From IMG/VR virus record IMGVR_UViG_3300046455_000369: DNA of 36,858 nucleotides. One strand, given 5' to 3'. Of this stretch, positions 1 to 25,966 are shown in pieces. Below the pieces are notes generated by a model. The model did not search any database. It was not told where the DNA came from and saw only the letters and a list, made by a program, of their open reading frames with translations. Both the position numbers and the translations under genes were made by a program. The stretch is from a virus. Position 1 is the stretch's first letter. The number at the start of each line of letters is the position of its first letter.

Positions 1-127
1 CGTCGCGACGACGCTGGACGACCTGCACACCTCAGACGGGGCGACGGCGATGGTGTGGGAGTTCATCGGCCCGATCATCGCCTCGACCTACAACGAGACG
101 TTCAGGATCAAGCTGCCCGCGATCAAG
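1..127. repeat. Window-terminal overlap, copy 1 (identical to 36732-36858)
   Basis: The same 127 nt (cgtcgcgacgacgctggacgacctgcac...aagctgcccgcgatcaag) occur at both window ends. The repeat lies inside the major tail protein reading frame. Confidence 0.95.
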
Positions 128-1390: not shown

Positions 1391-4300
1391 ATGTCGGACT
1401 CGCAGCGGCTACGGTTCATCCTCGACGGCGACGACCGCCTGAGCCGTGTCCTCAACCACGCCGGCGACTCCTCGGCCCGACTGCACCGCCGGCTCAACGA
1501 CGACATGGACGGCAACAGCCGGGCCGTCGACGGGTTCTTCCGGTCCGCCGACGGCCGCCTGAGGGACCTGCGCGGCCGGTTCCTCTCGGCCGACGACGCT
1601 GCCCGTGTGATGGGCGACGGCCTGCCCAACCTCAACCGCAGACTCGGCGACTTCTCCAACGCGGCATCCAGCGCGGGCGAGTCCGGCATGGGCCTCATGG
1701 GTGCACTCAAGGGCGTCGGCATCGTCGCAGGCTTCTCCCTTCTTCCGGCGATCGGCGCCCTGGTCCCGCTGCTGCTCGGTGCCGGCGCGGCCGCGGGCAC
1801 CCTCAAGCTCGGGTTCTCCGGTGTCGGTGACGCGCTCCAGGCGCAGGGGAAGGGCGCGAAGGAGTACAAGGACGCGCTGAAGAAGCTGTCGCCTGAGGCG
1901 CAGACCTTCACGAAGGCGCTGGTCGGGCTGAAGGGCGAGTTCGGCCCGATCGGCAAGGCGATCCAGAAGTCGATGCTGCCCGGCTTCACCGCGGCGGTGA
2001 AGGCGGCTGGGCCCGTCGTGAGGATCCTCGGCAAGTCCATGACCGAGATGGGCCGGGACTTCGGGGACGCGGGCCAGGGCGTCGCCAAGCTCCTCAAGGA
2101 CAGTGGGTTCCAGGACGACCTGCAGAAGAACCTGCACATGGGCGTCGGCGCGATCAAGGACATCACGGCCGCGGTCGGCCCGTTCGTCCGATCGCTGCTC
2201 GATCTGGGTGCCGCGTCCGGCCCGACCCTGAAGGCGCTCACGGGCGGGCTCTCGGACCTGCTCAGCAAGGGTCTGCCGTCGCTTTTCGACGGGCTGAAGC
2301 AGGGCATCCCCGGCGCGGCCAAGCTGCTCAGCGGCTTGTTCTCCGGGGTCAACGATCTGCTCGGCGGGATCGGACGGCTGTCCGGTGTGGCGGGTAAGGT
2401 CCTCGGTCCACTGTTCGGCGACACGTTCAAGGTCACGGGCTCCGTGGCGGCCGGGGCGATGGACGCGCTGGGCATGGAGCTGACGAAGCTGGAACCAGTC
2501 TTCCGTGACGTGGGGTTCGGCCTCAAAGCGATCATGGATGTCGGGCGGATCATCGGCCCGACCCTCGCGGACACGGGCACGGCAATCGCCGGCGCGTTCG
2601 CCCCGGTCGGTGACTCCGTGAATGGTGCCGTCGGACCGCTGCAGCGCCTGGACCGGTGGGTGAAGAACAACAAGGTCGACGTTCTGGAGGCGGCCCGGTT
2701 GTTCGGCGTGTCCTTCATCGACATGACGAGCGCCTCGGTTAAGGCCGCGCCGCAGATCATCCACGCGTTCCGGCTCGTCAGCGAAGGTGTCCTGTACGCG
2801 CTGGACGGCATGGTGTCAGGGGCGGCGCAGGCGTTCGGTTGGGTGCCCGGGATCGGTTCCAAGCTCAAGGCTGCGAACCGGGCGTTCGACTCCTTCAAGG
2901 ACGGCTACCTGGGCGCCCTGAGCACGGCCGAGCGCAAGGCCAACGAGTTCGCCGATTCGACCGTGCCGCGTCTGTCGCAGGGCAAGCTGCAGCTGAACAT
3001 CAACAACTGGACGTCGCAGATCGAGGCCGCCAAGGCCAAGATGAAGACTCTCCCGGCGTCGAAGCAGGCCGCGCTCAAGGCGACGATCGCCGACCTGGAA
3101 GCGAAGGTCCGGGCCGCGAAGGGCCAGCTGGCGTCACTGCACGACAAGAACGTCAGCGTGACCACCACGTTCTACTCGGTCGGCTCGAAGGCCAGCGGCG
3201 GGATTCCGGTCGCCCACCGGAACTACGCGTCCGGTGGTACGCCGAAGGCCGGCCAGTTGGCGATGGTCGGCGAGCGTGGTCCCGAGATGGTCGTGTTCGG
3301 GCAGGACGCCCGGGTGTTCACCGCTGAGGAGACGAAGGGCATCCTGCGGGGCAGTGCCGGGCCGCGGACTATCGGGGCCGGTGTGGCGGCCGCGCAGGGC
3401 CTGGCCGCGGGTATGGCCGGGTCGACGGGTGTCGTGGGTGCGGCAGCGCGGGCGATGGCGGCCGCGGTCACGGCCGGGGTCCGGGACGAGCTGGAGATCC
3501 GTTCGCCGTCGCGGAAGATGAAGGCGCTGATGGCCGATGTCGGCAAGGGCATCATCATCGGTCTGACCGGCTCCAGAGCCAAGATCAAGTCGACGGCCGC
3601 GGACCTGGCCCGGGACATCCGGACGGCGTTCTCCGGCAGGAAGGAGAGCCGCCTCCTCCGGTACGTGGACCAGCAGACGAAGCGGCTGCTGGACGCCGCG
3701 GCGAAGCGCGACAAGATCGCGGCGAAGATCGCTGAGGCGAAGCAGTACGCGTCCACGCTGACCACGAACGCCCGCAGTGCGGCCGGCCTGTCCAACCTCG
3801 GCATGGACCCTGACCACGTCACGGCCAAGGGCATCAAGACGGGGCTGCAGCAGAAGCTCGCGCAGATCCAGCAGTTCACCAGGTACATCGGCATCCTGGC
3901 CAAGCGAGGGCTGAACAAAGCCCTGCTGCGGCAGATCGAAGACATGGGCCCGGTCGACGGCTACGCCTACGCCTCGGCCCTGGTCGGCGCGGACAAGGCC
4001 ACGTTTTCGTCGATCAACAAGACCGAGACCGCGATCAACAAGACGACGGCCTCGCTGGGCCGCCAGGGCGCGGACATCCTGTACGACTCGGGCAAGAACG
4101 CGTCGAAGGGCTTCCTGGCCGGTCTGCAGTCCCAGCAGGCCGCCATCGAGAAGCTGATGGAGAAGATCGCCAGGGGCATGCAGAAGGCCCTACGGCGCGC
4201 CCTCGGTATCGCCTCGCCCGCGAAGAAGATGATCCCCGACGGGGTCAACGTCATGCGGGGCGTGGCCGTCGGCGTCCTGCAGGGGCTGCCCCACATCGAC

Positions 4301-4516
4301 AACGCCATGGCGGCGGCGGCCGGGCGGATGACCGGGGCCCTGCCGGCCGCCGGGCGTCCCGCGGTGGCGGGCGCGGGCGGCGGCACGGTCATCAACGTGC
4401 AGGTGGACGTGCACGACGCCATGGACCCGGTCGCCGTTGGCAGGGAACTCCAGCGGGTACTCCTGCAGTTCGGCCGCGTACAGGGCGGCGCCGTCACTCT
4501 GAAGGTAGGGGGATGA
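1391..4516 (+). CDS. Tape measure protein (1041 aa)
   Basis: Largest ORF, downstream of the chaperone pair. It has Gly/Ala-rich hydrophobic segments (GIVAGFSLLPAIGALVPLLLGAGAAAG), long helical regions, and the typical MVGERGPEMVVFG motif. Confidence 0.9.
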   Translation: MSDSQRLRFILDGDDRLSRVLNHAGDSSARLHRRLNDDMDGNSRAVDGFFRSADGRLRDLRGRFLSADDAARVMGDGLPNLNRRLGDFSNAASSAGESGMGLMGALKGVGIVAGFSLLPAIGALVPLLLGAGAAAGTLKLGFSGVGDALQAQGKGAKEYKDALKKLSPEAQTFTKALVGLKGEFGPIGKAIQKSMLPGFTAAVKAAGPVVRILGKSMTEMGRDFGDAGQGVAKLLKDSGFQDDLQKNLHMGVGAIKDITAAVGPFVRSLLDLGAASGPTLKALTGGLSDLLSKGLPSLFDGLKQGIPGAAKLLSGLFSGVNDLLGGIGRLSGVAGKVLGPLFGDTFKVTGSVAAGAMDALGMELTKLEPVFRDVGFGLKAIMDVGRIIGPTLADTGTAIAGAFAPVGDSVNGAVGPLQRLDRWVKNNKVDVLEAARLFGVSFIDMTSASVKAAPQIIHAFRLVSEGVLYALDGMVSGAAQAFGWVPGIGSKLKAANRAFDSFKDGYLGALSTAERKANEFADSTVPRLSQGKLQLNINNWTSQIEAAKAKMKTLPASKQAALKATIADLEAKVRAAKGQLASLHDKNVSVTTTFYSVGSKASGGIPVAHRNYASGGTPKAGQLAMVGERGPEMVVFGQDARVFTAEETKGILRGSAGPRTIGAGVAAAQGLAAGMAGSTGVVGAAARAMAAAVTAGVRDELEIRSPSRKMKALMADVGKGIIIGLTGSRAKIKSTAADLARDIRTAFSGRKESRLLRYVDQQTKRLLDAAAKRDKIAAKIAEAKQYASTLTTNARSAAGLSNLGMDPDHVTAKGIKTGLQQKLAQIQQFTRYIGILAKRGLNKALLRQIEDMGPVDGYAYASALVGADKATFSSINKTETAINKTTASLGRQGADILYDSGKNASKGFLAGLQSQQAAIEKLMEKIARGMQKALRRALGIASPAKKMIPDGVNVMRGVAVGVLQGLPHIDNAMAAAAGRMTGALPAAGRPAVAGAGGGTVINVQVDVHDAMDPVAVGRELQRVLLQFGRVQGGAVTLKVGG

Positions 4517-4519
4517 CTC

Positions 4520-6967
4520 GTGGCTCTGCTCGCCGAGATGGGGTGGGGTGGCCTGGTCCAGGACCCGGCCACCATCACGTGGACGGACATCTCGACCTAC
4601 GTGGACATGGCGACGGGAGTGACCATCACCCGGGGCGCTTCCGACGAGCTGTCGGAGACGCAGCCGGGGACGGCCACCCTGCGCCTGGACAACGCCGACG
4701 GCCGGTTCACCCCGGGCAACGCGGCCTCGCCCTATTACCCGTTCGTGCGCCGCAACGCGCCGATCCGGATCTCGGTGGCGGCCATCCCCGTCCGGACCGG
4801 ATCGGCCCCGTACCTGCTGGAGCAGCTCGGCGACGACTTCGACAACAACCAGGTCGACACCACGCTATGGACGGCGTCGGGCGGGGCCAGCGAAACGAAC
4901 GGGCGCATGCGCCTGCCCCTCGTGGCCGCAGGCACCACGGCCCGGTTCGTGAGCCTGCGTCAGTGGAAACTGCAGGGGTCGAAGCTGACGGCGAAGCTGT
5001 GCACCATCCCTGCTGGCGGCGGCAGCGCGTTCGGGTCGGTGACGATGTACGTGGAGGCGGTCGCCAGCAACACGTGGCTTCGCTGGACGTACAACGCCCT
5101 CGACGGGAAGCTGCGCGCGTACAACGACGCCGGGTCTACCGACCCCTCGCCGACCGTGCTCACCTACGACCCGATCCAGCACGCGTGGCTGCGGATCCGC
5201 GAGGCGTCGGGGACCGTGTACTTCGAGACCAGCCCGGACGGCGTTGTGTGGACGGTATGCCGGTCGCTGGCCACCCCGGCGTGGGTCGTGACGGACACGG
5301 TGCAGGTGGAATTCGCCGCGAACCGCTCCGGCGGCACCAGCGACTACGCCGAGTTCGACCTGGTCGGCGCCGATGTCCGGCCCCGCTTCTACGGCATGGT
5401 CAACGAATTCCCCGTGGACTGGGAAGGCCTCAGCAGCCACGTGCAGGTCACCTGCACGGACCTGTTCAAGCGGCTCAACAGGCTGCCCACGCTCCGGTCG
5501 ATGCTGACCGAGGAGATCGCCAAGATCTTGCCCACCGTGTACTACCCGCTGACCGAGCCGTCCGGGGCGGCATCCGCCGGCGACATCTCCGGCAACGCCC
5601 TGCCCTCGATGGCCATCACGCAGGTGTCGACGGGCGGCACGCTCACCATGGGCACCGACACCGGGCCGACCGAGACCGGCGACAGTACCCCGACGTTCAC
5701 CCCGTCCTCGGCGACGGCCGGCCTGTACCTCGCGGTCGACCTGGGGGTGGCCACCCAGCAGGCGCTCACGTCCTCCGTGTTCTCGGTCGAGGGCTGGTTC
5801 AAGACGACGACGACCGGCCGGGCCATCCTCAGCCTGTACTCACCGGACCTGCAGTGCGTCCAGGTCGTGTCCCTGTCGGCGTCCGGCGCCCTGCAGATCG
5901 AATGGACTGCCTCGGGTTCCAGCACCCTGACGGTGGAGGCCATCGCCGGAACCAGCGGCCTGAACGATGGGGCCTGGCATCACTTCGAGTGGGACCAGAG
6001 CGGCAGTGGCAGCGTCGCCGTGGACGGCGTGGTGGTCGACCCCAGCGTGCCCGTCACGGACGGGTTCGACCAGCGGACCCTTCACATCGGCGGATACCGC
6101 GGCACCCGGCTGTGGTCCGGGTCGATCGCGCACGTCGCGCTGTATGCGCGGTCCTCGATGGGCAGCGTCCTCGCCACCCACTACGCCACGGGCATGACCG
6201 GGAACGCTGGCGAGACCGCAGACTCCCGGATCGAACGGTTCTGCGACTATGCGGGCCTGGTCAACGTCTTCTTCCAGGGGAGCACGTTCGACCCGATCGC
6301 GTCCCAAGGGCCTGGCGGCACGGGCGTGGTGGCGCGGATGCGGGAGGTGGAAGCCACCGAGTCGGCGAAACTCTTCGCGGACCGCGACGACTTCGGCATG
6401 ACGTTCCAGTCCCGGGACCTGCGCTACAACCCGTCGCCCGCTGGCGAGGCGTTCACGATCGCCTACGCAGACCTGGAGACCAAGAGCGTCGAGTTCGCCG
6501 ACGACGACCAGAAGCTGATCAACAGCATCGAGGCATCCCGCCCGGGCGGCGCCACCCAGAAAGTCACTGCTCCGTCCAGCATCCTGGCGTTCGGGGTGTA
6601 CGACCCGGGCTCCCTCTCGATCCTCAAGACCAGCGACAACAGCGTGCTGGACGCGGCGTCCTGGCGGGTATCCCGCTACGCCAACCCGGGGCCCGAGCTG
6701 CGCGAGGTGCCAATCGAGGCGTACACGATGGCCAACTACACGGGCATCCTCGCCGCCGACATCTCCAGCTACTTCAGCGTCACCGCCATGCCGTCGCAAG
6801 CGCCGTTCTCCTCGGTACGGGTCACCGTCGAGGGCTACACGGAGACGCTCAAGGAGCGGTCGCATCTGATCCAGTTCCACACCAGCACCACCAACAACGA
6901 CTCCGTGTGGGTGCTGGACGACCCGGTCTACAGCGTCCTCGACTACACCACCCGCCTCGCCTACTAG
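4520..6967 (+). CDS. Distal tail protein (Dit, siphovirus tail component) enlarged by two ConA/LamG-like lectin-fold insertions (815 aa)
   Basis: GTG 4520 lies 3 nt after the TMP stop. The N-terminus ITWTDISTYVDMATGVTITRGASDELSETQPGTATLRLDNADGRFTP is Dit-like. aa ~100-285 form a jelly-roll-like insert (HAWLRIREASGTVYFETSPDGVVW). aa ~395-560 form a LamG-type insert (FSVEGWFK...DGAWHHFEW...LHIGGY...GSIAHVALY). A Dit-like C-terminal part follows. Confidence 0.8.
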   Translation: MALLAEMGWGGLVQDPATITWTDISTYVDMATGVTITRGASDELSETQPGTATLRLDNADGRFTPGNAASPYYPFVRRNAPIRISVAAIPVRTGSAPYLLEQLGDDFDNNQVDTTLWTASGGASETNGRMRLPLVAAGTTARFVSLRQWKLQGSKLTAKLCTIPAGGGSAFGSVTMYVEAVASNTWLRWTYNALDGKLRAYNDAGSTDPSPTVLTYDPIQHAWLRIREASGTVYFETSPDGVVWTVCRSLATPAWVVTDTVQVEFAANRSGGTSDYAEFDLVGADVRPRFYGMVNEFPVDWEGLSSHVQVTCTDLFKRLNRLPTLRSMLTEEIAKILPTVYYPLTEPSGAASAGDISGNALPSMAITQVSTGGTLTMGTDTGPTETGDSTPTFTPSSATAGLYLAVDLGVATQQALTSSVFSVEGWFKTTTTGRAILSLYSPDLQCVQVVSLSASGALQIEWTASGSSTLTVEAIAGTSGLNDGAWHHFEWDQSGSGSVAVDGVVVDPSVPVTDGFDQRTLHIGGYRGTRLWSGSIAHVALYARSSMGSVLATHYATGMTGNAGETADSRIERFCDYAGLVNVFFQGSTFDPIASQGPGGTGVVARMREVEATESAKLFADRDDFGMTFQSRDLRYNPSPAGEAFTIAYADLETKSVEFADDDQKLINSIEASRPGGATQKVTAPSSILAFGVYDPGSLSILKTSDNSVLDAASWRVSRYANPGPELREVPIEAYTMANYTGILAADISSYFSVTAMPSQAPFSSVRVTVEGYTETLKERSHLIQFHTSTTNNDSVWVLDDPVYSVLDYTTRLAY

Positions 6968-6975
6968 GAGCTGCC

Positions 6976-7428
6976 GTGCCCGCCGTCATCCCCGTTGTGC
7001 GCGCCGAGACGTTCTACCTGCCGGCCCCACCCGAGTCGCCGGACGCCTGGGCGATGGTGCCCCCGGCGCTGCTGGTGTGGCGCTGGTACGAGGCGCGCAT
7101 GGGCCGCCGTGTCATCCCGCCCGACGACGACTCGGTCACCGGGGAGTCGTACTACGCGCGCATCAACCAGAACCGATGGCTGGCCGACTGCTCGTCGTGC
7201 GGGTCGGCGGCCGTCGTCTCCCCGGCAGACCCGCGGTACGCCTGCACCCAGTGCGGCTGGGGCTGGTGCGCGCTCACCTTCCCGGCCGACGTCGCCGCGG
7301 TCGAGGCCAGCCTCATAGGCCTCAAGCCTGCCCTCAGGAACTGGTGGAACGACGCCGACCCCAGCAACCCGAACCCGCCGCCGGGCGATCCGATCCCCAG
7401 CCCGCCCGACCCGCAGAAGGTGACCTGA
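6976..7428 (+). CDS. Tail-module protein with CxxC...CxxC zinc-ribbon (150 aa), function unknown
   Basis: AGGAG at 6966-6970, then GTG 6976. This is the last 150 codons of track ORF 4513-7428. Motif: CSSCGSAAVVSPADPRYACTQCGWGWC, with a Pro-rich C-terminus. Confidence 0.6.
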   Translation: MPAVIPVVRAETFYLPAPPESPDAWAMVPPALLVWRWYEARMGRRVIPPDDDSVTGESYYARINQNRWLADCSSCGSAAVVSPADPRYACTQCGWGWCALTFPADVAAVEASLIGLKPALRNWWNDADPSNPNPPPGDPIPSPPDPQKVT

Positions 7429-7429
7429 C

Positions 7430-7939
7430 GTGACATCCACTCCCCGGACCTGGGTGGTCGGCGAGGTGGTCACCGGTGCGCTGATGAACCAGGAGATCCG
7501 CGACCAGTTCAACAGCTTCTTCGGGGCCTGGACCAGCTACACCCCGACGTTCGGGTCCGCGGGCACCGCCCCGGCAGTGGGTAACGGAACTCTGTCCGGC
7601 CAGTACATGAAGGTCGGCCGGAGCGTCCTCGTATCCCTGGTCCTCACCGTCGGCAGCACCACCACCTTCGGCAGCGGCAACCTGAACTTCAGTCTGCCCG
7701 CCACCGTGTCCGCGTCGGCGGCTGGCGCCGTCCTCAACGCCAGCACCAGCCGCACGGGCACACAGAACTTCGTCGTGGGTGCCGCCCCGCTGAGCAACAA
7801 CGGCACCAACACCGGCACCATCTGGTTCGCGTCGACGAGCACCTCGGGCGACTGGGACGCGTGGACCACGTCCACGCCGTGGACCCTGGCGGCCGGTGAC
7901 ATCGTCCGCGTCTGGGGCACCTACCAGGCCTCTTCCTGA
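7430..7939 (+). CDS. Minor tail protein / putative receptor-binding tip (169 aa)
   Basis: GTG 7430. The N-terminal motif PRTWVVGEVVTGALMNQEIRDQF is typical of actinophage minor tail proteins. The rest is Gly/Ser/Thr-rich and beta-like. Confidence 0.65.
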   Translation: MTSTPRTWVVGEVVTGALMNQEIRDQFNSFFGAWTSYTPTFGSAGTAPAVGNGTLSGQYMKVGRSVLVSLVLTVGSTTTFGSGNLNFSLPATVSASAAGAVLNASTSRTGTQNFVVGAAPLSNNGTNTGTIWFASTSTSGDWDAWTTSTPWTLAAGDIVRVWGTYQASS

Positions 7940-7958
7940 CCCACCCCTCACCCCGCAC

Positions 7959-7983
7959 GCCCCGAGCCGATGGCCGGGGCTTT
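7959..7983 (+). terminator. Hairpin plus short T-run after the tail genes
   Basis: gccccgagcc-gat-ggccggggc followed by ttt. It lies between the minor tail gene and the endolysin gene. Confidence 0.5.
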
Positions 7984-8003
7984 CGTCATTCCTGGAGCCC
8001 TTC

Positions 8004-8855
8004 ATGCCTGACCTGTGGATGCCCGGTGCGCAGCACCTGGACATAGGCGACCACGCGCCGACCGATGGCGGCCCGGCCAAGGCCATCGCGCACATCACCT
8101 GGGACAAGAACGCCAGCGCGGCCAAGCCGGCGGACCTGGTCCCGTACACCGCGCTGCGCAGCTACTTCGCGGGCGGCGGCGCCCCGGTCGCCCCGCACAT
8201 CCTCTGGGATGTCTTCACCGGGTCCTTCACCCAGTTCGTGCCCGCCAACTCGAGGTCGAAGAGCCTGGTCGACCAGGCGGGCGGCACCCGCACCAACCGG
8301 GCCGGCAGCGTGGTCATCCAGATCGAGGCGTTGTTCTTCCCGTACTGCCGGGTCGGGACGAAGGTGTACGCCAAGCTGGCCGACACCCCGTGCAAGGGCT
8401 GGGACGACCTGCACGCCTGGGTGAAGTCGTGGGGTGTCGCCGACGCCTGGCCGAACGGCCGCCCCGAGAACTGCACCCGCAACGAGAAGACGTGGGAGAC
8501 GAAGAGCGGCTGGTACCCGCATAAGGGCGTCCCCGAGAACGACCACGACGACCCGCTGTCCTGGCCTGCGTTCCCCGTCTCCCCGCCCGCGGCGGGGCAG
8601 CCGAAGCACGAGCCGTTCCCGGGCGCCTCGTTCTTCGTGGCCGGCCGCCGTTCTCCGATCATCGCCGCAATGCACAAGCGACTCGTCGCCGTCGGCTGCA
8701 ACAAGTACGCCAGCCCGGCCAACCCTGACGTCTGGGGTTCGGGCGACGAGCGGTCCTACGCCGCGTGGCAGCGGCACCTCGGCTACGCCGGCAGCGACGC
8801 CGACGGCCAGCCCGGCAAAACCAGCTGGGACCGACTCCAGGTCCCCATCGTCTGA
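8004..8855 (+). CDS. Endolysin (cell-wall hydrolase domain plus C-terminal Streptomyces-type peptidoglycan-binding domain), 283 aa
   Basis: GGAG, then ATG 8004. The C-terminus FPGASFFVAGRRSPIIAAMHKRLVAVGCNKYASPANPDVWGSGDERSYAAWQRHLGYAGSDADGQPGKTSWDRLQVP matches the wall-binding module common in Streptomyces proteins and phage lysins. A holin gene follows. The catalytic class cannot be resolved by eye. Confidence 0.75.
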   Translation: MPDLWMPGAQHLDIGDHAPTDGGPAKAIAHITWDKNASAAKPADLVPYTALRSYFAGGGAPVAPHILWDVFTGSFTQFVPANSRSKSLVDQAGGTRTNRAGSVVIQIEALFFPYCRVGTKVYAKLADTPCKGWDDLHAWVKSWGVADAWPNGRPENCTRNEKTWETKSGWYPHKGVPENDHDDPLSWPAFPVSPPAAGQPKHEPFPGASFFVAGRRSPIIAAMHKRLVAVGCNKYASPANPDVWGSGDERSYAAWQRHLGYAGSDADGQPGKTSWDRLQVPIV

Positions 8856-8870
8856 GAGGAACGATCTACC

Positions 8871-9137
8871 ATGTCCGACACCTCACTTCCCGCCGTGAAC
8901 ACCGTGGTAAAGACCGCCAAGACCTACGGCCGCGACCTCGCCGAGAGAGTCACCTGGTCCTTCCTCGGAGGCACGGCCGCCGTCGTCACCGCGTCGGGAC
9001 CGGCCGACATGTTCCACGCCTCGTTCTGGCAGGCCGCCGGCACCGGCGGACTCGCCGCGGTCGTGTCCCTCGTCAAGGGCCTGGCTGCCCGGTGGGTCAA
9101 CGTCCGGAACTCGGCCTCGACCGCCTCCGGCGTCTGA
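8871..9137 (+). CDS. Holin (88 aa, two predicted TM helices)
   Basis: Immediately downstream of the endolysin. Hydrophobic segments: WSFLGGTAAVVTASG and FWQAAGTGGLAAVVSLVKGLAA. Confidence 0.6.
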   Translation: MSDTSLPAVNTVVKTAKTYGRDLAERVTWSFLGGTAAVVTASGPADMFHASFWQAAGTGGLAAVVSLVKGLAARWVNVRNSASTASGV

Positions 9138-9167
9138 CCCTGCCCATCCGAGCGTCTTGGAGGTGGC

Positions 9168-9434
9168 ATGGATGCCGCCCTCGTCACAGCAATCGGCGTG
9201 ATCGTCAGCGCCATCGTGGCCGGGGCGGCAGCCATATACGGCTCCAGGGCCGCGGGACGGGCCCAACGGGAGGGCAACGCGGTGAACGGCTTCAACAGCC
9301 TCACGGACCAGCTCCAGGAGGAACGTAAGGAACTGCGCTCCGACGTAGCCGCCCTGCGCCTGGAGCTGGCCTCGGAGAAAGCGGAGACGGCGCGGCTTCG
9401 GCTGCTCGTGCAGCAGCTGGGGGGCACGCCATGA
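9168..9434 (+). CDS. Lysis-cassette membrane protein (N-terminal TM plus coiled coil), 88 aa
   Basis: GGAGG RBS, ATG 9168. TM segment ALVTAIGVIVSAIVAGAAAIYG is followed by a heptad-like LQEERKELRSDVAALRLELASEKAETARLRLL. Confidence 0.55.
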   Translation: MDAALVTAIGVIVSAIVAGAAAIYGSRAAGRAQREGNAVNGFNSLTDQLQEERKELRSDVAALRLELASEKAETARLRLLVQQLGGTP

Positions 9435-10105
9435 CGCGCACCCAGCGTGTGCTCGCCAGACGGTGGAAGCCCATCGCCCTCGTGGCCGCTCTGCTGGCCC
9501 TCACTGGCGCGGTCCTCCTCGTGTACGTGCGCGTCCAGGCCGAGGCCACGCGCGCCAACCAGCTCGCCGACGAGGCCGACCTGCGGGGCACTGCCGTGAC
9601 CACCCTGGCCGGGGACGTCCGCGTGCTGCGCGCACAGATCAAGGCCCGGGGCGGCACCCCGGCCGCGCCTGACCCGGCCAAGGCCGTCAAGAACCTGCCC
9701 GACCGGGCCGAGGTGCCCGTGCCGATTCCCGGCCCGCCCGGCCCGCCTGGGCCGAAGGGCGACCCGGGCGAGCCCGCACCCACGATCACTCCGTCGCCCG
9801 GTGCTTCCGGGGCGGCCGGCGCCAACGGTTCGGCCGGCGCGACCGGCCCTCAGGGGCCGCAGGGTGAACCGGGCGCCGACTCCACCGTCCCCGGACCCCA
9901 AGGACCTCAGGGGCCCGAGGGCGAGCGAGGCCCACAGGGCCCCGCCGGCCCCAGCTGCCCGGACGGCTACAGCCTCCAGGCACCCAGCTGGGACCCGGAC
10001 GCCCTTGTCTGCCGCCGGGACGGCGCACCGCCCCCAAGCCCCAGCCCGACCGGGCTGCTCGGCCTCGCCACACTCGCTACGACCGCCTCCTACCGGAAGC
10101 TGTAG
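9431..10105 (+). CDS. Secreted or membrane-anchored collagen-like (G-X-Y repeat) protein, 224 aa
   Basis: ATGA overlap start. N-terminus RRWKPIALVAALLALTGAVLLVYVRVQA, then a coiled segment. 21 G-X-Y triplets occur in three blocks (aa 101-175, nt 9731-9955). A Cys-containing C-terminal domain and a hydrophobic/basic tail (PTGLLGLATLATTASYRKL) follow. Confidence 0.75.
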   Translation: MTRTQRVLARRWKPIALVAALLALTGAVLLVYVRVQAEATRANQLADEADLRGTAVTTLAGDVRVLRAQIKARGGTPAAPDPAKAVKNLPDRAEVPVPIPGPPGPPGPKGDPGEPAPTITPSPGASGAAGANGSAGATGPQGPQGEPGADSTVPGPQGPQGPEGERGPQGPAGPSCPDGYSLQAPSWDPDALVCRRDGAPPPSPSPTGLLGLATLATTASYRKL

Positions 10106-10113
10106 AACAACAC

Positions 10114-10150
10114 GCGGCCCTGCTCTCCTTCGGGAGGGCGGGGCCGCTTT
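10114..10150. terminator. Bidirectional rho-independent-type terminator between convergent genes
   Basis: gcggccctgctctcc-ttcg-ggagggcggggccgc forms a 15-bp stem with two G-U pairs, followed by ttt. It sits between + gene 9431-10105 and - gene 10165-10431. Confidence 0.7.
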
Positions 10151-10164
10151 CGTCGTGTCCGGGG

Positions 10165-10431
10165 TCAGTCTTCCGGCTGCTCGGCGGCTGGCAGGGCGAT
10201 GACGAACACGCCTTTCCCCTGCACGCCCTGCACCAGGCCCTCGGTGGCGAGGACCTCGAGCGCGGTCTTGATGGTGCGCCTCGACACCACACCGCTCGTT
10301 TCGACCTCGAGTTCGGCCTGGGACGGGAGGCGGCGGCCTACCGGGATCTCGCCGCGCCGGATCCGGTCGCGGAGCACGGTGGCCAGCTGTACGTACAGCG
10401 GCGTCATCGCATCGCGGTCCAGCTCGATCAT
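10165..10431 (-). CDS. Stand-alone GntR-family winged-HTH regulator (about 88 aa, no effector domain)
   Basis: MIELDRDAMTPLYVQLATVLRDRIRRGEIPVGRRLPSQAELEVETSGVVSRRTIKTALEVLATEGLVQGVQGKGVFV is a typical GntR N-terminal domain. The start is uncertain (10431 or 10407). The upstream part of the track ORF (to 10566) is discounted. Confidence 0.75.
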   Translation of the reverse strand: MIELDRDAMTPLYVQLATVLRDRIRRGEIPVGRRLPSQAELEVETSGVVSRRTIKTALEVLATEGLVQGVQGKGVFVIALPAAEQPED

Positions 10432-10487
10432 GCTGTGACCGTAAGAGCACCACTCGTGCAGGCATAGATCTGGATAGCCCGTCCGAG

Positions 10488-10517
10488 GACGTACCAAGAC
10501 GTACCAAGTAGGCGTAC
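10488..10517. promoter_or_regulatory. Candidate operator: perfect tandem 10-bp repeat GACGTACCAA x2 plus a third CGTAC one helical turn further
   Basis: gaggACGTACCAAGACGTACCAAGtaggCGTACag lies in the divergent intergenic region between the GntR-like gene and the Cys-rich operon. GT..AC cores are typical of GntR operators. Confidence 0.5.
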
Positions 10518-10592
10518 AGTCCGGAGGCACGAGAAACCCCCGCAGCCTGGCAGGGCCCGGGGGCACGGTCCACGCCGAAGAGGAGCGTCGAC

Positions 10593-10790
10593 ATGCCAGA
10601 GACTACGCAGACCGAGGACACCCCGACCAGCCCCCGCGCAATGGGCTGGTGCCACTGGCACAAAGGCCTCGGGGAGACCCCGCGGCTGATCCAGGTCGTA
10701 GAAGCCGGCTCCGGACCGGGCGCTCGGATGTTCGCCTGCGGCCGCTGCTCCACCCGGTTCAACCTCACCCCGTTCGCCGACCAGCCGTGA
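10593..10790 (+). CDS. Small Cys/His-rich protein 1 (65 aa)
   Basis: RBS gaagaggag, ATG 10593. Motifs: GWCHWHKG...MFACGRCSTRFNLTP. Confidence 0.6.
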   Translation: MPETTQTEDTPTSPRAMGWCHWHKGLGETPRLIQVVEAGSGPGARMFACGRCSTRFNLTPFADQP

Positions 10791-11008
10791 CGGCGCCGGA
10801 GCTACCGAACGCGGCCCGGCTGACCCGCGGCCAGCACTCGGGATGGAACTGCGTGCTCTGCCACGCCCGGCTCACCCGGGGCGCGGTCTGCGCCGGCCGA
10901 GCCGAGGGCCGCATCGGCGCCCACGACATGGGCATCGACGTGTACGCCTGCCCCAGCTGCGCCACCCGATACGGCATCACCGACCGGCCAGGAGGTACCC
11001 CGCGATGA
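10787..11008 (+). CDS. Small zinc-ribbon protein 2 (73 aa), distant paralog of protein 1
   Basis: GTGA overlap start at 10787. Motifs: GWNCVLCHARL...VYACPSCATRYGITD. Confidence 0.55.
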   Translation: MTAPELPNAARLTRGQHSGWNCVLCHARLTRGAVCAGRAEGRIGAHDMGIDVYACPSCATRYGITDRPGGTPR

Positions 11009-11208
11009 AGACGATCAGCCAGGCGACGAAGGACCTCATGGCCAACGCGGACGCCTCGGGCTACCGGGCGGCCGGCCTCTGCGCCTCCAGGCACTCCAGT
11101 GGCGCGCTCTGCACCCGCAGCGCCAGCGATGGCCACGGCGCGGGCGAACACGGCAACCCCTACGTGGACCGGAAGTCCGTGGCGGACGCGTTCGGCCTGC
11201 GCTGGTAG
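11005..11208 (+). CDS. Small Cys/His-containing protein 3 (67 aa)
   Basis: ATGA overlap start at 11005. Sequence: MKTISQATKDLMANADASGYRAAGLCASRHSSGALCTRSASDGHGAGEHGNPYVDRKSVADAFGLRW. GC3-rich. Confidence 0.5.
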   Translation: MKTISQATKDLMANADASGYRAAGLCASRHSSGALCTRSASDGHGAGEHGNPYVDRKSVADAFGLRW

Positions 11209-11249
11209 AGCTCCGGTCCCGGCGCAGACGGCGTGCCGGGGCCGGACCG

Positions 11250-11285
11250 ACGGCCGCCTGTTCCCCCCGAGCAGGCGGCCGTTTT
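11250..11285 (+). terminator. Rho-independent terminator after the Cys-rich operon
   Basis: acggccgcctg-ttccccccgag-caggcggccgt followed by tttt/g. Confidence 0.75.
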
Positions 11286-11471
11286 GCGTCTACCTTCGAT
11301 TCGAAGGCGATCACTCACAGGCCCGAATTGAGCCGCAAAGCCGCAGGTCAGCGGGCTGGACTTCCATGACGAACGTCAAGCTCAAGCATGATCCTTTTAG
11401 TGGTGTCGCAGGACCATATTGGGGTTCCCGAACCTGAGACAAAGACGCCTCTAGCGGAGCACACTCGGGGC
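11286..11471. other. Candidate attP-containing and int-promoter region
   Basis: A 186-bp AT-richer non-coding gap directly upstream of the serine integrase gene. It has three short palindromes: CCTTCGAtTCGAAGG (11293-11307), TGACGaaCGTCA (11367-11378) and GGTTCccGAACC (11423-11434). Position is by analogy with other serine-integrase phages. The exact core is not identifiable by eye. Confidence 0.35.
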
Positions 11472-12968
11472 ATGAAGAACACCCAGACGGGGGGCGCCCA
11501 GACGCGCGCGGCCATCTACTGCCGCATCTCGCAGGACCGCACGGGCGCCGGTCTCGGCGTCGACCGGCAGCGCGAGGACTGCCAGGCCCTCGCCGACCGG
11601 AACGGCTGGACGGTCGTCGAGACCTACGTCGACAACGACGTGAGCGCGTACTCGGGGAAGAAGCGCAAGGACTACGAGCGCATGCTGGCCGACCTCGCCG
11701 AGGGCAAGGCCACCGTTGTGATCGTCTGGCACACGGACCGGCTCCACCGCTCGGTCACCGAGCTGGAGAAGTACATCAACATGTGCGAGCAGCGCGGCGT
11801 CACCACCCACACCGTGCAGGCCGGGGAGCTCGACCTCGCTTCACCCACCGGGCGGATGGTGGCGCGGATGCTCGGCAACGTCGCCCGATACGAGTCCGAG
11901 CACAAGGGCGACCGGATCGCGAGGAAGCGCCGGCAGAAAGCCATGGCAGGCGAGTGGGCCGGCGGGATCCGCCCGTTCGGCTGGGGCCTGCCCACCGGCG
12001 AGACGGTCAAGAAGGTGGACCGGAAGACCGGCGACGAGATCGAGGTCCCCGAGCTGGACATGCTCAAGGCCGTGCCCGAGGAGGCCGAGGCCCTGCGCTA
12101 CTGGACGGATCACATCCTGTCCGGCGGGTCGATCCGGTCGCTCGTGCAGTGGTGCGCGGACAAGGGCATCACCTCGACCCGCGGGAACGCCGTCACGCAC
12201 ACCGATATGCGCGACATGCTGCTGCGCCCCAGGAACGCCGGGATCGCCGTCTACAAGGGCGAGGAGGTCGGCCCCGGGCGGTGGGAGCCGATCGTCGCCG
12301 AGACGAAGTTCAGGGCCGTCTGCGCGGTCCTGAGGAACCCGGAGCGGACGACGACCCCGGGCGCCCAGCCGAAATGGCTGGGATCACTGCTGTACCGGTG
12401 CGGCCGCGGGGATTGCCCGGAGTTCGTGTACGTCACCCAGTCGGGCGGCCGCCGGTATCCGTCGTACCGGTGCCAGACCGGGCACGGCGGCGGCCGGCGC
12501 GCCGAGATCGTCGACCAGCATGTCGAGGACACGGTCGTCGAACGGCTGGAAAGAGACGACGCCCCCGACCTGCTGGAGCCCGCACCCGAGGGCGTGAACG
12601 TATCGGCGCTGCAGGCGGAGGCCGAGGACGTCCGGGGCCGGATGCGGAACCTGGCCGGGATGTACGGGGCCGGGCAGATCGACGAGGTGCAGTTCGCCGA
12701 GGGCACCGACACGGCCCGCGGCCAGCTGGAGGGGATTACGCGGCAGCTGGCGCGCGCAGCCCGGGTGGATCCGCTCGTGGAGCTCGTCGGCGCGAAGGAT
12801 GTACGGAAGGCGTGGAAGGCGCTGACCTTGGACCGGAAGCGGTCGGTGCTGCGTTCCCTGGTCACGGTGACGCTGAAGACTCCGCGCGCCGGCCGGATGC
12901 CCGACGGCGGCTACTTCGACTACGACGCCGTCGTCTTTGAGTGGAAGCGGGGATCACCGATCGGATGA
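11472..12968 (+). CDS. int: Large serine recombinase (phage integrase), 498 aa
   Basis: MKNTQTGGAQTRAAIYCRISQDRTG... is a resolvase-type catalytic domain with the Ser nucleophile context YCRIS. A recombinase domain (ARYESEHKGDRIARKRRQKA), a zinc ribbon (YRCGRGDCPEF...YRCQTGHGG) and a coiled-coil region follow. Confidence 0.95.
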   Translation: MKNTQTGGAQTRAAIYCRISQDRTGAGLGVDRQREDCQALADRNGWTVVETYVDNDVSAYSGKKRKDYERMLADLAEGKATVVIVWHTDRLHRSVTELEKYINMCEQRGVTTHTVQAGELDLASPTGRMVARMLGNVARYESEHKGDRIARKRRQKAMAGEWAGGIRPFGWGLPTGETVKKVDRKTGDEIEVPELDMLKAVPEEAEALRYWTDHILSGGSIRSLVQWCADKGITSTRGNAVTHTDMRDMLLRPRNAGIAVYKGEEVGPGRWEPIVAETKFRAVCAVLRNPERTTTPGAQPKWLGSLLYRCGRGDCPEFVYVTQSGGRRYPSYRCQTGHGGGRRAEIVDQHVEDTVVERLERDDAPDLLEPAPEGVNVSALQAEAEDVRGRMRNLAGMYGAGQIDEVQFAEGTDTARGQLEGITRQLARAARVDPLVELVGAKDVRKAWKALTLDRKRSVLRSLVTVTLKTPRAGRMPDGGYFDYDAVVFEWKRGSPIG

Positions 12969-23299: not shown

Positions 23300-23616
23300 G
23301 CGACGCCCTGAAGAAGGCCGAGGCCGCGGTCACCGAGGCGCAGACGGACACGGTGGCCGTACAACTGGCGCTCGCCGCCGTCGAGCTGGCCAAGGCCGCC
23401 ACCGCCCAGCAGCCGCAGCAGCAGGCGCCGGCCTGTAGCCACCAGCCCCGGCAGGGCCGTAGTACGGGCGAGTGGTTGGGGATCGGCTGCGCCGTGTGCG
23501 TTGGGGGCGTCGGGATCGCCTTCGCGTCCATCGCCATCGCCATCGGCGGCATGTCCGTCGCCATCCTCGCCCTGGTGCTGCGCTCCATCTGGCGAGACCT
23601 GCAGAGGGGACGCTGA
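23296..23616 (+). CDS. Membrane protein (106 aa; N-terminal helix, C-terminal TM)
   Basis: GTGA overlap start at 23296. C-terminal part: ...EWLGIGCAVCVGGVGIAFASIAIAIGGMSVAILALVLRSIW. Confidence 0.5.
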   Translation: MSDALKKAEAAVTEAQTDTVAVQLALAAVELAKAATAQQPQQQAPACSHQPRQGRSTGEWLGIGCAVCVGGVGIAFASIAIAIGGMSVAILALVLRSIWRDLQRGR

Positions 23617-23618
23617 CC

Positions 23619-23801
23619 GTGGCCGACGACATCGACTGGGGCGACCTCAACTGGTCGGAGAAGCGGGCCGTCCTGCGAGCGGACGCAAAGGGCGGCTGGA
23701 GCGTCCTGCGCACCCGCGCCACCAGCACGCCCAAGGCCGACCGCGAGGTCGAGGCCGTCTTCGAGCGGGCCCGCAAGCGCATCGCCAAGGGCAAGAAGTA
23801 G
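23619..23801 (+). CDS. Small basic protein (60 aa)
   Basis: GTG 23619. Sequence: VADDIDWGDLNWSEKRAVLRADAKGGWSVLRTRATSTPKADREVEAVFERARKRIAKGKK*. Confidence 0.4.
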   Translation: MADDIDWGDLNWSEKRAVLRADAKGGWSVLRTRATSTPKADREVEAVFERARKRIAKGKK

Positions 23802-23804
23802 CAC

Positions 23805-23847
23805 CCCGAGGACGGCGCCCTACCGCCAAGCAGCCGCCGTCCTCGGG
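23805..23847 (+). terminator. Perfect 13-bp-stem hairpin (terminator/attenuator) just upstream of the TraB-like gene
   Basis: cccgaggacggcg-(17 nt)-cgccgtcctcggg, with no T-run. Confidence 0.45.
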
Positions 23848-23884
23848 CCACCCGACCGCCCAACAGAACGACCGGAGAACCAGG

Positions 23885-25966
23885 ATGACAGTCCACCTGA
23901 TCAAGCCGGAACAGGACGCCCCCGAGGACGCGCCGGACACCACTCCGTCCTCGACGCGTCCCGAGCGGCGCCGCGCCCGCTATCTCCGCATCACCAAGGC
24001 CGCCCTCACCGACGACCGCGTCCGCACCGCCGGACGCCTCGCCGTCCGCCACGCGTCCTACATCACCGGCGGAGGACGCATCGTCGGACGCCGCGTCTGG
24101 GACAGCCGGTCCACCGCCCGGTACGAGCGGATGATCCGCGCCGCCGAAGCCGCCGGCCTCATGGACGAAGTCAAGGAATGGGAGGCACGCGCCGCCGCCT
24201 ACAAGGCCGCCCGGCACCGCCGCCGCCTCGACATGCTCCAGCTGATGATCCAAGCCCCCAAGGCCCTCGCGTTCGCCACCGTCGGCGGCGCCGGCGTCCT
24301 CCTCCTAGTCGGCATCCTGCTCGCCTGGGGCAGCGGCGACGTCCACGACGTCCTCACCCCCATCGAGACCGTCATCGACCTGGTCCGCTGGTGCGCGTTC
24401 ATCGGCGGCATCGTCTGGGACCCGTTCCTGTTCGCCGCCCCCTGGATCGGGCTCGCCGCCGTCTGGGCCGTCGGCCAGCACCAGCACACCGCCCCCCAGT
24501 GGGCACTGCCCGCAAGCGCCCGCACCTACGGCGACGCCGTCACCCCGTCCATCGTCGTCATCGCCTTCCGTGACCTGGGCATCTCCCCGCTCCGTAAGGC
24601 CATCGACAGCATGGGCGACCTCGGTGGCGCCATGCTCTCCCCGATCACCATCGCGGGCTGCGGCGTCCAGGTCGACGTCCACCTGCCCACCGGCGTCTCC
24701 ACCGAAGAGATCCAGGCCAGGCGCAAGAAGCTCGCCGAGAACCTCAACCGGCACGAACACGAGGTGTTCATCTCCATCCCACCGCAGCCCCGCACCGTCA
24801 GCCTGTGGATCGCCGACTCCGGCGCCCTCGACGAACCCATCGGCCCCTCGCCGCTCGTGCTCGACGACGACATCCACGCCAACTACAAGACCGGCCGCGC
24901 CCCCTGGGGCCAGTCCCTGCGCGGCGACAACGTCGGCATGAGCGTCTACCAGCGGCACGTCCTCATGACCGGCCTGTCCAACCAGGGCAAGACCGCCTCC
25001 CTGCGGGCCGTCGCCCTCTGGCTCGCCTTCGACACCTCCGTCGAGTTCTGGATCGGCGACCTCAAGGGCATCGGCGACTGGCGGATGTTCAACGGCATCG
25101 CCACCGTCCTCATCGAGGGCCCCACCGACGAACACGCCTGCTCCGTCACCGAGATGGTCGAGGCCGCCGTCAAGGAGATGGAGAAGCGCCTCCAGGACCC
25201 GCCCGGCACCGTCCACCACCCGCTCGTCGTCATCGTCGACGAGGCCCAGGTCGCGTTCATGAACCCGCTCAAGGGCGACGACGGCCGCCCCTACGGCGGC
25301 AAGAAGGCCACCAGCAGGTACTTCATGGCCTGCCGCCGCCTCCACAACCAGGGCCGCGCCGTCTCCGTCACCCTGTGGCAGGGCACCCAGGACCCCACCG
25401 ACGAGAACCTGCCCAAGCTGGTCCGCGAGGGCGCCCACATCCGGGCCTCCCTCGTCGTCGGCACCGAGTCCCAGGCCAAGATGGCCCTCGGCGACAAGGC
25501 CGTGAACGCCGGCGCCGCACCTCACCTGCTGCGCCAAGGCCTCGACAAGGGCACCCTCGTCGTCGCCGGCGACGGCATCGAGATCCCGGCCGGGGAACCG
25601 GCCATCACCGTCCGCACCCACTTCATCGACACCGACCCCGCCAAGGAGATCGCAGAGCGCGCCCGCCAGCTCCGCGACGGCATCGCCACCGTCCACCAGC
25701 TGGAGGTCGCCCCCGACGTCGACCACCTCCTCGACCTGGCCGCGGTCGTCGGCCGCGAGAACCGCGTCCGCACCACCGAGGTCATCCACCGGCTCAAGTC
25801 CCGCAACCACCCCGTGTACGAGCACTGGGACGGCAAGCGCCTCAAGGCCCTGCTCGCCGAGTACGGGGAGGAGCCGGGGGTGTCCGACGGCTATCCGGTG
25901 GTCAAGCTGGAGAGCGTCGAGAGGGCCCTCGAACGCCGCGCGGAGCAGCTTGCTGAAGCCCAGTGA
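23885..25966 (+). CDS. TraB/TraSA-like FtsK/SpoIIIE-family dsDNA translocase (693 aa)
   Basis: GGAG RBS, ATG 23885. N-terminal TM helices: ALAFATVGGAGVLLLVGILLAWG and FIGGIVWDPFLFAAPWIGLAAVWAVG. Walker A: LMTGLSNQGKTAS. Walker B: HPLVVIVDEAQVAF. C-terminal wHTH-like region: RVRTTEVIHRLKSRNHPVYEHWDGKRLKALLAEYG. Confidence 0.8.
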   Translation: MTVHLIKPEQDAPEDAPDTTPSSTRPERRRARYLRITKAALTDDRVRTAGRLAVRHASYITGGGRIVGRRVWDSRSTARYERMIRAAEAAGLMDEVKEWEARAAAYKAARHRRRLDMLQLMIQAPKALAFATVGGAGVLLLVGILLAWGSGDVHDVLTPIETVIDLVRWCAFIGGIVWDPFLFAAPWIGLAAVWAVGQHQHTAPQWALPASARTYGDAVTPSIVVIAFRDLGISPLRKAIDSMGDLGGAMLSPITIAGCGVQVDVHLPTGVSTEEIQARRKKLAENLNRHEHEVFISIPPQPRTVSLWIADSGALDEPIGPSPLVLDDDIHANYKTGRAPWGQSLRGDNVGMSVYQRHVLMTGLSNQGKTASLRAVALWLAFDTSVEFWIGDLKGIGDWRMFNGIATVLIEGPTDEHACSVTEMVEAAVKEMEKRLQDPPGTVHHPLVVIVDEAQVAFMNPLKGDDGRPYGGKKATSRYFMACRRLHNQGRAVSVTLWQGTQDPTDENLPKLVREGAHIRASLVVGTESQAKMALGDKAVNAGAAPHLLRQGLDKGTLVVAGDGIEIPAGEPAITVRTHFIDTDPAKEIAERARQLRDGIATVHQLEVAPDVDHLLDLAAVVGRENRVRTTEVIHRLKSRNHPVYEHWDGKRLKALLAEYGEEPGVSDGYPVVKLESVERALERRAEQLAEAQ

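Follow-up and report, generated by a model that had tools for sequence, protein, structure and literature searches.

The virus record IMGVR_UViG_3300046455_000369 of IMG/VR is a DNA sequence of 36,858 nucleotides (nt), the whole of which is referred to as the window. At positions 9431-10105 (+ strand) it contains an open reading frame (ORF) for a collagen-like protein of 224 amino acids (aa), in the following called the collagen protein, which had been pointed out in an earlier note made from the sequence alone. The main new result of our analysis is that this gene is one half of a conserved two-gene pair. Its partner, which went unnoticed in the earlier note, lies directly upstream and codes for a small transmembrane (TM) protein of 88 aa, p88.

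The collagen gene and its partner form a conserved pair

A census gave 54 loci, 46 of them with distinct partner sequences, in which a partner of 84 to 135 aa is encoded directly upstream of the collagen gene, and in 51 of these 54 the stop codon of the partner gene overlapped the start of the collagen gene by 4 nt. The order endolysin, holin, small TM protein and collagen protein is found not only in the window but also in the Streptomyces phages SF1/SF3, Kromp and OnionKnight, in prophages of Streptomyces and Actinacidiphila, and in many IMG/VR contigs. The search for homologs and their genomic context, which the earlier note had proposed, thus shows the distal position in the lysis cassette to be a recurrent one. 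In a prophage of Actinacidiphila glaucinigra (locus L006, 8699-9940) the collagen gene is not the last one; an ORF of 413 aa on the same strand abuts its stop codon.

What stands upstream of the pair is variable. At least four unrelated types of endolysin were found there (Amidase_2, CHAP+LysM, GH25 and phrog_29733/PG_bind_siph), and the holins range from 66 to 121 aa with a variable number of TM segments. This swapping of endolysins and holins indicates that the pair has retained its distal place in lysis cassettes while other modules were shuffled. As the gap between the holin gene and the partner gene measures only 13-33 nt, the pair is most simply taken to be co-transcribed with the lysis genes.

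The collagen proteins occur in two subtypes which differ in their partners. Type A, to which the window protein belongs, has the signature TLAGDVRxLRxQV and a partner with an N-terminal TM segment followed by a charged helix. Type B (Kromp, OnionKnight) has a shorter helix ending in ...ARDxLAxQVxxLGxxPV, and in its partner the coiled coil comes first and the TM segment is C-terminal, i. e. the partner is tail-anchored. Subtype and partner topology agreed in 38 of 38 loci with an N-terminal and in 16 of 16 with a C-terminal TM segment. Both kinds of partner are predicted to place their coiled coil in the cytoplasm, type A by the positive-inside rule and type B by the lack of a leader. The hairpin close to the C-terminus of the collagen protein, CPDGYSLQAPSWDPDALVC-R(R/K)DGAP, is nearly identical in type A and type B. 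These observations suggest co-evolution of the partner with the N-terminal part (TM segment and juxtamembrane region), and contact of the tip with a conserved component outside the cell; the pattern could also be due to shared ancestry.

For p88 itself AlphaFold2 gave two helices, aa 3-29 (the TM segment) and aa 38-83. The charged helical domain consists to 30% of Lys, Arg, Asp and Glu, and the charge after the TM segment is +3/-1; p88 is hence predicted to be oriented N-out/C-in with a cytoplasmic coiled coil. It matches phrog_2658 at 2.1e-15. Of its 346 relatives, 119 of the 120 listed have a length of 88 aa, and the named ones (NCBI/UniRef, among the matches listed) are called 'hypothetical' or 'uncharacterized'. 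A relation of p88 and the collagen protein as paralogs was not supported (hhalign probability 3.8%). The helices of the two proteins both end in (L/R)GGTP (window 9417-9431 and 9647-9661).

Two proteins putatively joined at the membrane, one with a cytoplasmic coiled coil and the other with an extracellular domain, could also act as a sensor. The rod would then respond to an outside condition, e. g. the condition of the wall or superinfection by another phage, and signal it via p88 to the holin and thereby regulate lysis timing, following the logic of the T4 antiholins RI/RIII. The dispensability of the pair in many relatives would agree with this, and 1-TM-domain (TMD) partners of N-out/C-in orientation from mycobacteriophages do alter lysis timing (PMC13056207). 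However, there was no similarity to any antiholin, a rigid collagen rod offers no obvious signaling mechanism, and the idea is a purely architectural one. We regard it as quite unlikely.

Anatomy of the collagen protein

The reading frame of the collagen gene is favored over the overlapping rival ORFs by its GC content at third codon positions, which is 0.87 compared to 0.72-0.75. It is not a chance ORF either, since the protein has more than 2,500 relatives in the databases. The best 120 of these are all from Streptomycetaceae, 207-240 aa long and 58-100% identical to the window protein. The parts of the protein are listed in Table 1.

The first 13 residues contain five Arg/Lys and no Asp/Glu, and the 15 residues after the TM segment carry +1/-4. 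According to the positive-inside rule this asymmetry points to an N-in/C-out orientation. The TM region is among the best conserved parts of the family, and an AlphaFold2 model based on 56 homologs shows a single unbroken helix from aa 3 to 72 (predicted local distance difference test, pLDDT, 79-98). A signal or TM segment, whose absence had been named as a refuting point, is thus predicted (aa 13-35); together with the basic N-tail and the charge pattern it supports the claim that the protein is exported or anchored and not cytoplasmic. The earlier note had considered both a signal anchor and a signal peptide cleaved after VQA. The anchor is favored. A cleaved signal peptide is unlikely because the TM segment is highly conserved and continues into the helix without a break, whereas the presumed cleavage site is not conserved: relatives have IDA, IES, IGQ or VVA at the position of VQA|E, and the second subtype has VVALTH.

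The coiled-coil stretch described behind the N-terminus was recovered as well, as the part of this predicted helix which extends to aa 72 and contains a heptad core. It bears the family signature TLAGDVRxLRxQ(V/I), which is present in distant relatives too, and its invariant residues run from E48 to Q69. In the adjoining Pro-rich linker P77, P80, D81, P82 and V95-P100 are invariant or nearly so.

The 21 G-X-Y triplets previously counted were borne out by a regular-expression count. They form three blocks of 5 (aa 101-115), 9 (aa 124-150) and 7 triplets (aa 155-175), separated by APTITPSP and STVP. The Pfam family Collagen (PF01391) matched with 36.5 bits at a cut-off of 27.2, and a triple helix is predicted. 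In a profile search against the PDB collagens alone were matched, over aa 100-180, and NCBIfam yielded only sub-threshold matches to the collagen adhesins SclB/SclA (aa 101-190). The number of triplets in relatives varies from 16 to 38. The first interruption, APTITPSP (aa 116-123, window 9776-9799), is a nearly invariant Pro/Thr/Ser motif. Its similarity to O-mannosylation sites of actinobacteria raises the possibility that the stalk is glycosylated.

The small two-Cys domain of the earlier note corresponds to a predicted beta-hairpin which is bracketed by C176 and C194 (strands 180-183 and 193-196 in the AlphaFold2 model). All 121 relatives have exactly two Cys in the ectodomain. Disulfides are used in exported actinobacterial proteins, and the Cys pair fits an extracytoplasmic tip with a putative disulfide bond.

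The protein ends in ...SPTG-LLGLATLATTASY-RKL, which had been likened to a sortase sorting signal. As the criterion for such a signal we used L[PA]xTG, followed by a hydrophobic stretch of TM length and a basic tail. L[PA]xTG did not occur within the last 60 aa of any of the 121 relatives, and the 'TG' in front of LLG lacks conservation. Only about 13 residues make up the hydrophobic stretch, which is missing in the third of relatives that end in ...LDPxRRQY(P). The protein was therefore rejected as a sortase substrate. A helix in the C-tail (aa 210-222) was modeled with low confidence (pLDDT of about 50 or lower). Among the relatives, 74 tails are of the class TAxYRRL and 33 of the class LDPxRRQY, and the others also have an Arg/Lys pair near the C-terminus; the constant feature of the C-tails is the basic end only.

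Collagen repeats are common in fibers, e. g. in phiC31 gp49, and existing annotations would make the collagen protein a minor tail or head fiber of the virion. It matches phrog_1806 ('collagen like minor tail', 1.6e-38) and phrog_18350 ('tail fiber protein'), and SF3 gp25 and Kromp gp28 carry the annotation minor tail protein; the annotations in OnionKnight and SF1, in contrast, say 'hypothetical'. The PHROG match spans the TM segment and the helix, so that the PHROG family is the same TM-anchored family. Its label appears to rest on the repeats, and no virion data were found for any member. Furthermore, a signal anchor with five positive charges inside and an invariant Cys pair indicate folding outside the cytoplasm, where tails are not assembled. 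The earlier note had considered the placement of the gene unusual for a tail fiber, and we came to the same view: the fiber gene of phiC31 (gp49) is upstream of the endolysin gene, whereas the collagen gene is always downstream of the holin gene and never among tail genes. In a six-frame search of 90 loci, 86 of which had been fetched via the collagen protein itself, and of the window, the knob motif was found in the TM-collagen gene only and never in a tail gene. A function as virion fiber therefore seems very improbable.

The window and its lysis operon

The termini of the window (1-127 and 36732-36858) are identical over 127 base pairs (bp). Thus the window is a circular assembly and represents the complete genome of a phage, about 36.7 kb in size. 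In addition to the genes in Table 1 it encodes a single-stranded DNA-binding protein (SSB), an FtsK-like protein, terminase, portal and major head protein. This gene content, the GC content of 70% and the close relatives of the collagen protein, which among the matches listed are all from Streptomyces or Actinacidiphila, identify it as a temperate Streptomyces siphovirus. The FtsK/SpoIIIE-like protein (23501-25966, 821 aa, phrog_1358) is unusual for a siphovirus and recalls the plasmid transfer proteins of Streptomyces.

Table 1. Features of the lysis region, parts of the collagen protein and further genes of the window
Feature	Position	Strand	Evidence and remarks
Tape measure	1391-4516		
Large tail protein	4520-6967		
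Endolysin, opens the lysis cassette	7896-8855	+	phrog_29733 5.8e-97; phrog_17214 'endolysin' 3e-63
Holin, 88 aa, r1t-like, two weakly hydrophobic segments	8871-9137	+	phrog_443 'holin' 1.5e-8
p88, 88 aa, N-terminal TM segment and charged helix	9168-9434	+	stop overlaps ATG of the collagen gene (ATGA)
Collagen protein, basic N-tail, predicted cytoplasmic (aa 1-12)	9431-9466	+	charge
Collagen protein, TM signal anchor, 23 residues (aa 13-35)	9467-9535	+	Kyte-Doolittle up to 2.67; pLDDT 94-98
Collagen protein, juxtamembrane ectodomain helix (aa 36-72)	9536-9646	+	AlphaFold2; heptad core V56, L59, V63, L66, I70
Collagen protein, Pro-rich linker GGTPAAPDP...PDRAEVPVPIP (aa 73-100)	9647-9730	+	AlphaFold2: without regular secondary structure
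Collagen protein, interrupted collagen-like domain (aa 101-175)	9731-9955	+	regular-expression count; Pfam PF01391
Collagen protein, two-Cys hairpin 'knob' CPDGYSLQAPSWDPDALVC (aa 176-194)	9956-10012	+	predicted beta-hairpin, pLDDT ~70
Collagen protein, Pro-rich linker 2 (aa 195-206), short hydrophobic-then-basic C-tail (aa 207-224), stop	10013-10105	+	
Hairpin terminator between the convergent late operon and GntR gene	10114-10147		15-bp stem, 4-nt loop
GntR gene, convergent with the late operon	10165-10566	-	short regulator, winged-helix domain only
Serine integrase	11388-12968		

At the 3' end of the late operon the genes follow in the order endolysin, r1t-like holin, p88 and collagen protein, and behind them lies the hairpin terminator. 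The earlier note was thus correct in placing the collagen gene last in the lysis operon and beside a terminator. The endolysin is matched by NCBIfam PG_bind_siph over aa 241-316 at 1.6e-27. As listed, its ORF has a GTG start and overlaps the preceding gene (7430-7939) by 44 nt. Since most relatives align from residue 37 onward (MPDLWMPGA...), the true start is probably near 8004. The match of the holin to the Pfam family Phage_r1t_holin is weak and under the cut-off (0.0017). Holin and p88 genes are 30 nt apart, and the distance from p88 to the collagen gene is -4 nt. Folding of the terminator region (10100-10170) gave a centroid energy of -35.1 and a minimum free energy of -37.4 kcal/mol (z = -3.9; 0 of 200 shuffles fold as well), and a U-run follows 3' of the hairpin on the + strand. 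In relatives (L004) a full GntR+UTRA protein is encoded where the window has the short GntR regulator.

Comparison with known systems

By architecture and position, the closest analogues of the collagen protein would be LysZ and the i-spanins. In the corynephages Cog and CL31, LysZ is encoded by the last gene of the cassette lysA-hol(r1t family)-lysZ and is required for lysis (PMC13123898). Phages deleted for lysZ fail to lyse their host, and loss of the lipoglycans lipomannan and lipoarabinomannan (LM/LAM) relieves the block; lysZ is often preceded by a gene for a 4-TM protein, LysY (McKitterick, Lyerly & Bernhardt, PNAS 2026; PMC13123898). In phages of Mycobacteriales and Micrococcales, LysZ-like genes were identified from where they lie and from the structure predicted for their products, and not from sequence; the paper does not mention Streptomyces phages (PMC13123898). 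In our search of the literature, no TM-anchored collagen protein in a lysis cassette of a Streptomyces phage was found described.

The collagen gene resembles lysZ in its distal place in a cassette of the lysA/r1t-type holin kind and in its 4-nt overlap with the upstream gene, which is also seen for CL31 lysZ (clg_49). Of the LysZ layout, the protein has a predicted TM segment, a helix which is shorter and ends at aa 72, and a Pro-rich linker. It differs in that this linker is expanded into an interrupted collagen domain and a predicted disulfide hairpin, and in that the C-terminal helix (aa 210-222) has a low pLDDT and is replaced in a third of the relatives. Moreover, there is a small obligatory partner instead of, or besides, the 4-TM LysY, and the Streptomyces host makes lipoteichoic acid and not LM/LAM. 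In hhalign comparisons the collagen protein reached probabilities of 0.5% with CL31 clg_49 and 0.2% with Corndog gp75, which we infer from gene position to be the LysZ of Corndog; for p88 the values were 0.2% and 3.3%. A positional match of 18 residues, AV(S/T)T...V.VL..Q..A, was not significant in the LysZ comparison (E = 0.12). The family phrog_2658 is touched by both Corndog gp75 (2.4e-4) and p88. As no homology is detectable, the relation to LysZ is one of architecture and position and not a demonstrated membership. CL31 lysZ, which by position is clg_49 (MW582634; L253, 4900-5415), is labeled 'exonuclease' in GenBank and has a 4-nt overlap with the holin gene.

With the i-spanin of phage lambda (Rz) the collagen protein would have in common the distal cassette gene, the N-in/C-out anchor, a long helical ectodomain, conserved Cys and a second, translationally linked gene. 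However, the host is monoderm, a collagen domain is present, and the o-spanin, an outer-membrane lipoprotein, is missing; p88 is instead a TM protein with a cytoplasmic coiled coil and without lipobox. We therefore did not class the collagen protein as an i-spanin: topology and helix fit, but the lipoprotein partner and matches to spanins are lacking.

A third comparison, again based on architecture only, concerns LysF1a (2-TMD) and LysF1b (1-TMD, N-out/C-in, helical) of cluster F1 mycobacteriophages, both of which are needed for efficient lysis (Pollenz et al., PLoS One 2026; PMC13056207). In the window the 2-TMD holin of 88 aa is likewise followed by a 1-TMD N-out/C-in protein, p88, and ATGA-type coupling occurs inside the cassette. 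The difference is that the ATGA overlap of p88 is with the downstream collagen gene.

Outside phages, collagen helices occur in the eukaryotic type II transmembrane collagens (membrane-associated collagens with interrupted triple helices, MACITs, e. g. XIII/XVII), where they fold from N to C, and in class A scavenger receptors (SR-A/MARCO). The collagen protein resembles these in its cytoplasmic N-tail, signal anchor, juxtamembrane coiled coil and small Cys-containing C-terminal domain. This is an analogy only, as there is no homology beyond the G-X-Y repeats and the collagen protein is about tenfold smaller and phage-encoded. G-X-Y repeats are also shared with fibers of the phiC31 gp49 type, which have no signal anchor and are encoded upstream of the endolysin, and with Scl1/Scl2. 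The latter are anchored C-terminally by sortase (LPXTG), whereas the collagen protein is anchored N-terminally and has no sorting motif.

A possible role in lysis

The earlier note had offered two inferences about the function, a cell-envelope protein for lysogenic conversion or exclusion and an envelope-spanning lysis accessory. The second is the better supported one, because the gene is translationally coupled to a membrane protein of the lysis cassette and keeps its position behind swapped endolysins and holins; the first stays as a rival. The chances are about even that the collagen protein is needed for efficient or correctly timed lysis or release. With somewhat less confidence, we consider it possible that in a monoderm host the collagen helix is a working part of a phage's lysis machine. 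The rod would be anchored in the membrane, span the wall and be linked via the small TM partner to that side of the lysis cassette which faces the cytoplasm, and it would either disrupt membrane- or wall-anchored lipoteichoic/teichoic acids or inform the holin clock of the state of the cell surface. A LysZ-like effector action on anchored polymers is less likely.

In such a mechanism the pair would be made late and in stoichiometric amounts, on a transcript shared with endolysin and holin. In the membrane, p88 would have its coiled coil on the cytoplasmic side, the collagen protein would be a single-pass type II protein (N-in/C-out), and the two would probably associate via their TM segments. 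The juxtamembrane helix probably trimerizes and would nucleate the interrupted collagen triple helix from N to C. Fully extended, the rod would measure about 35 nm, as the summed rise of the helix, the linkers and the 63 collagen residues. This is approximately the thickness of a Gram-positive wall and would bring the hairpin and the basic tail into the outer wall or up to it. After triggering of the holin and cleavage of the peptidoglycan, the complex would help to finish the disruption of the envelope or the release of the progeny. Streptomyces makes a membrane-anchored polyglycerolphosphate lipoteichoic acid (PMC3196553); this or wall polymers, which the basic tip could bind, may be the target. 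If the conserved pair disrupts glycopolymers as the final step of lysis, it would be the Gram-positive counterpart of spanins and LysZ.

Several points weigh against a role in lysis. The collagen protein showed no homology to validated or inferred LysZ that hhalign could detect, and no matches to spanin families in Pfam or PHROG. The host has no outer membrane, and lipoteichoic acid as a barrier in Streptomyces is putative. Among 66 viral contigs with a relative of the window endolysin and at least 1.5 kb of sequence downstream of it, 35 have the pair and 31 lack it. Hence the pair is accessory and not essential for lysis by that endolysin. Finally, every carrier phage of readable lifestyle is temperate, and the gene is situated at the prophage end beside regulators and integrase. 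The prophage end is the classic place of genes expressed in lysogens.

These last points fit better with a surface fiber for superinfection exclusion, receptor masking or lysogenic conversion. Expressed in lysogens and/or late, its anchored tip at or beyond the wall would block, by steric hindrance or in a specific manner, the adsorption or DNA entry of other phages, or keep the progeny off debris. Apart from the temperate carriers, the accessory distribution in about half of the related contigs and the location at the far end of the late operon next to the GntR regulator and the serine integrase, the contrast between a conserved N-terminus and an exchange of the C-terminal modules (knobs of two types, tails of at least two) would be expected with a variable external target. 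Yet the 4-nt overlap with p88 and the 13-33 nt between holin and partner genes are too short to accommodate a promoter. No promoter-like site was detected by a sigma-70-type scan of 7300-11500; this evidence is weak, as the promoters of Streptomyces depart from the consensus used. In both subtypes the coupling to a membrane protein of the lysis-cassette type is strict, and neither the collagen protein nor p88 nor the holin had a match in PADLOC. Knob A hardly varies between N-terminal subtypes that are very different, unlike a fast-evolving decoy. We thus consider a surface fiber of this kind a less likely but serious rival, and the participation in lysis is the reading which we follow here.

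The 'virulent' label of SF1/SF3 (PMC5336643) was set aside in the assessment of lifestyles, since the SF1 record (NC_028807; L088, L001) looks chimeric. The genes for terminase, portal, capsid and tail occur in it as two complete sets, and it is probably a chimeric assembly of two phages. The lysis region of SF3 is exactly the same as that of SF1.

In several of the contigs without the pair, the slot is occupied by two genes, the first for a protein of 140-151 aa with 3 to 4 TM segments and the second for a helical 1-TM protein of 110-119 aa (IMG/VR contigs of the window endolysin family: L097, 5260-6017; L129, 5195-5997; L143, 5238-6016). The 1-TM proteins end in a Pro-rich stretch, and the arrangement looks like that of LysY/LysZ. 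When p88 was compared to the 119-aa 1-TM protein of L129, hhalign gave a probability of 30%. The multi-TM protein of these slots is labeled 'minor tail protein' in PHROGs (phrog_4026).

Implications for phage lysis in actinomycetes

Lysis of Gram-positive hosts is usually described in terms of holin and endolysin only. The LysZ and LysF1b papers of 2026 show that actinophages need further membrane proteins, and they suggest that membrane-anchored glycopolymers are a mechanical barrier (PMC13123898, PMC13056207). The collagen/p88 module is widespread in Streptomyces phages. Its two families appear to be misfiled in PHROGs, that of the collagen protein as 'tail' (phrog_1806, phrog_18350) and that of p88 as 'hol-like chemotaxis' (phrog_2658), and these labels appear to derive from the composition of the repeats or of the coiled coil. 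If a role in lysis is true, the labels 'minor tail protein' and 'tail fiber' in PHROGs and GenBank would be systematically wrong and could be corrected, and the protein would be one of the few examples in which a bacterial virus uses a collagen helix as a spacer anchored in the membrane. By this, a collagen rod in the lysis slot would extend the idea of extra lysis proteins to actinomycetes which are free of mycolate.

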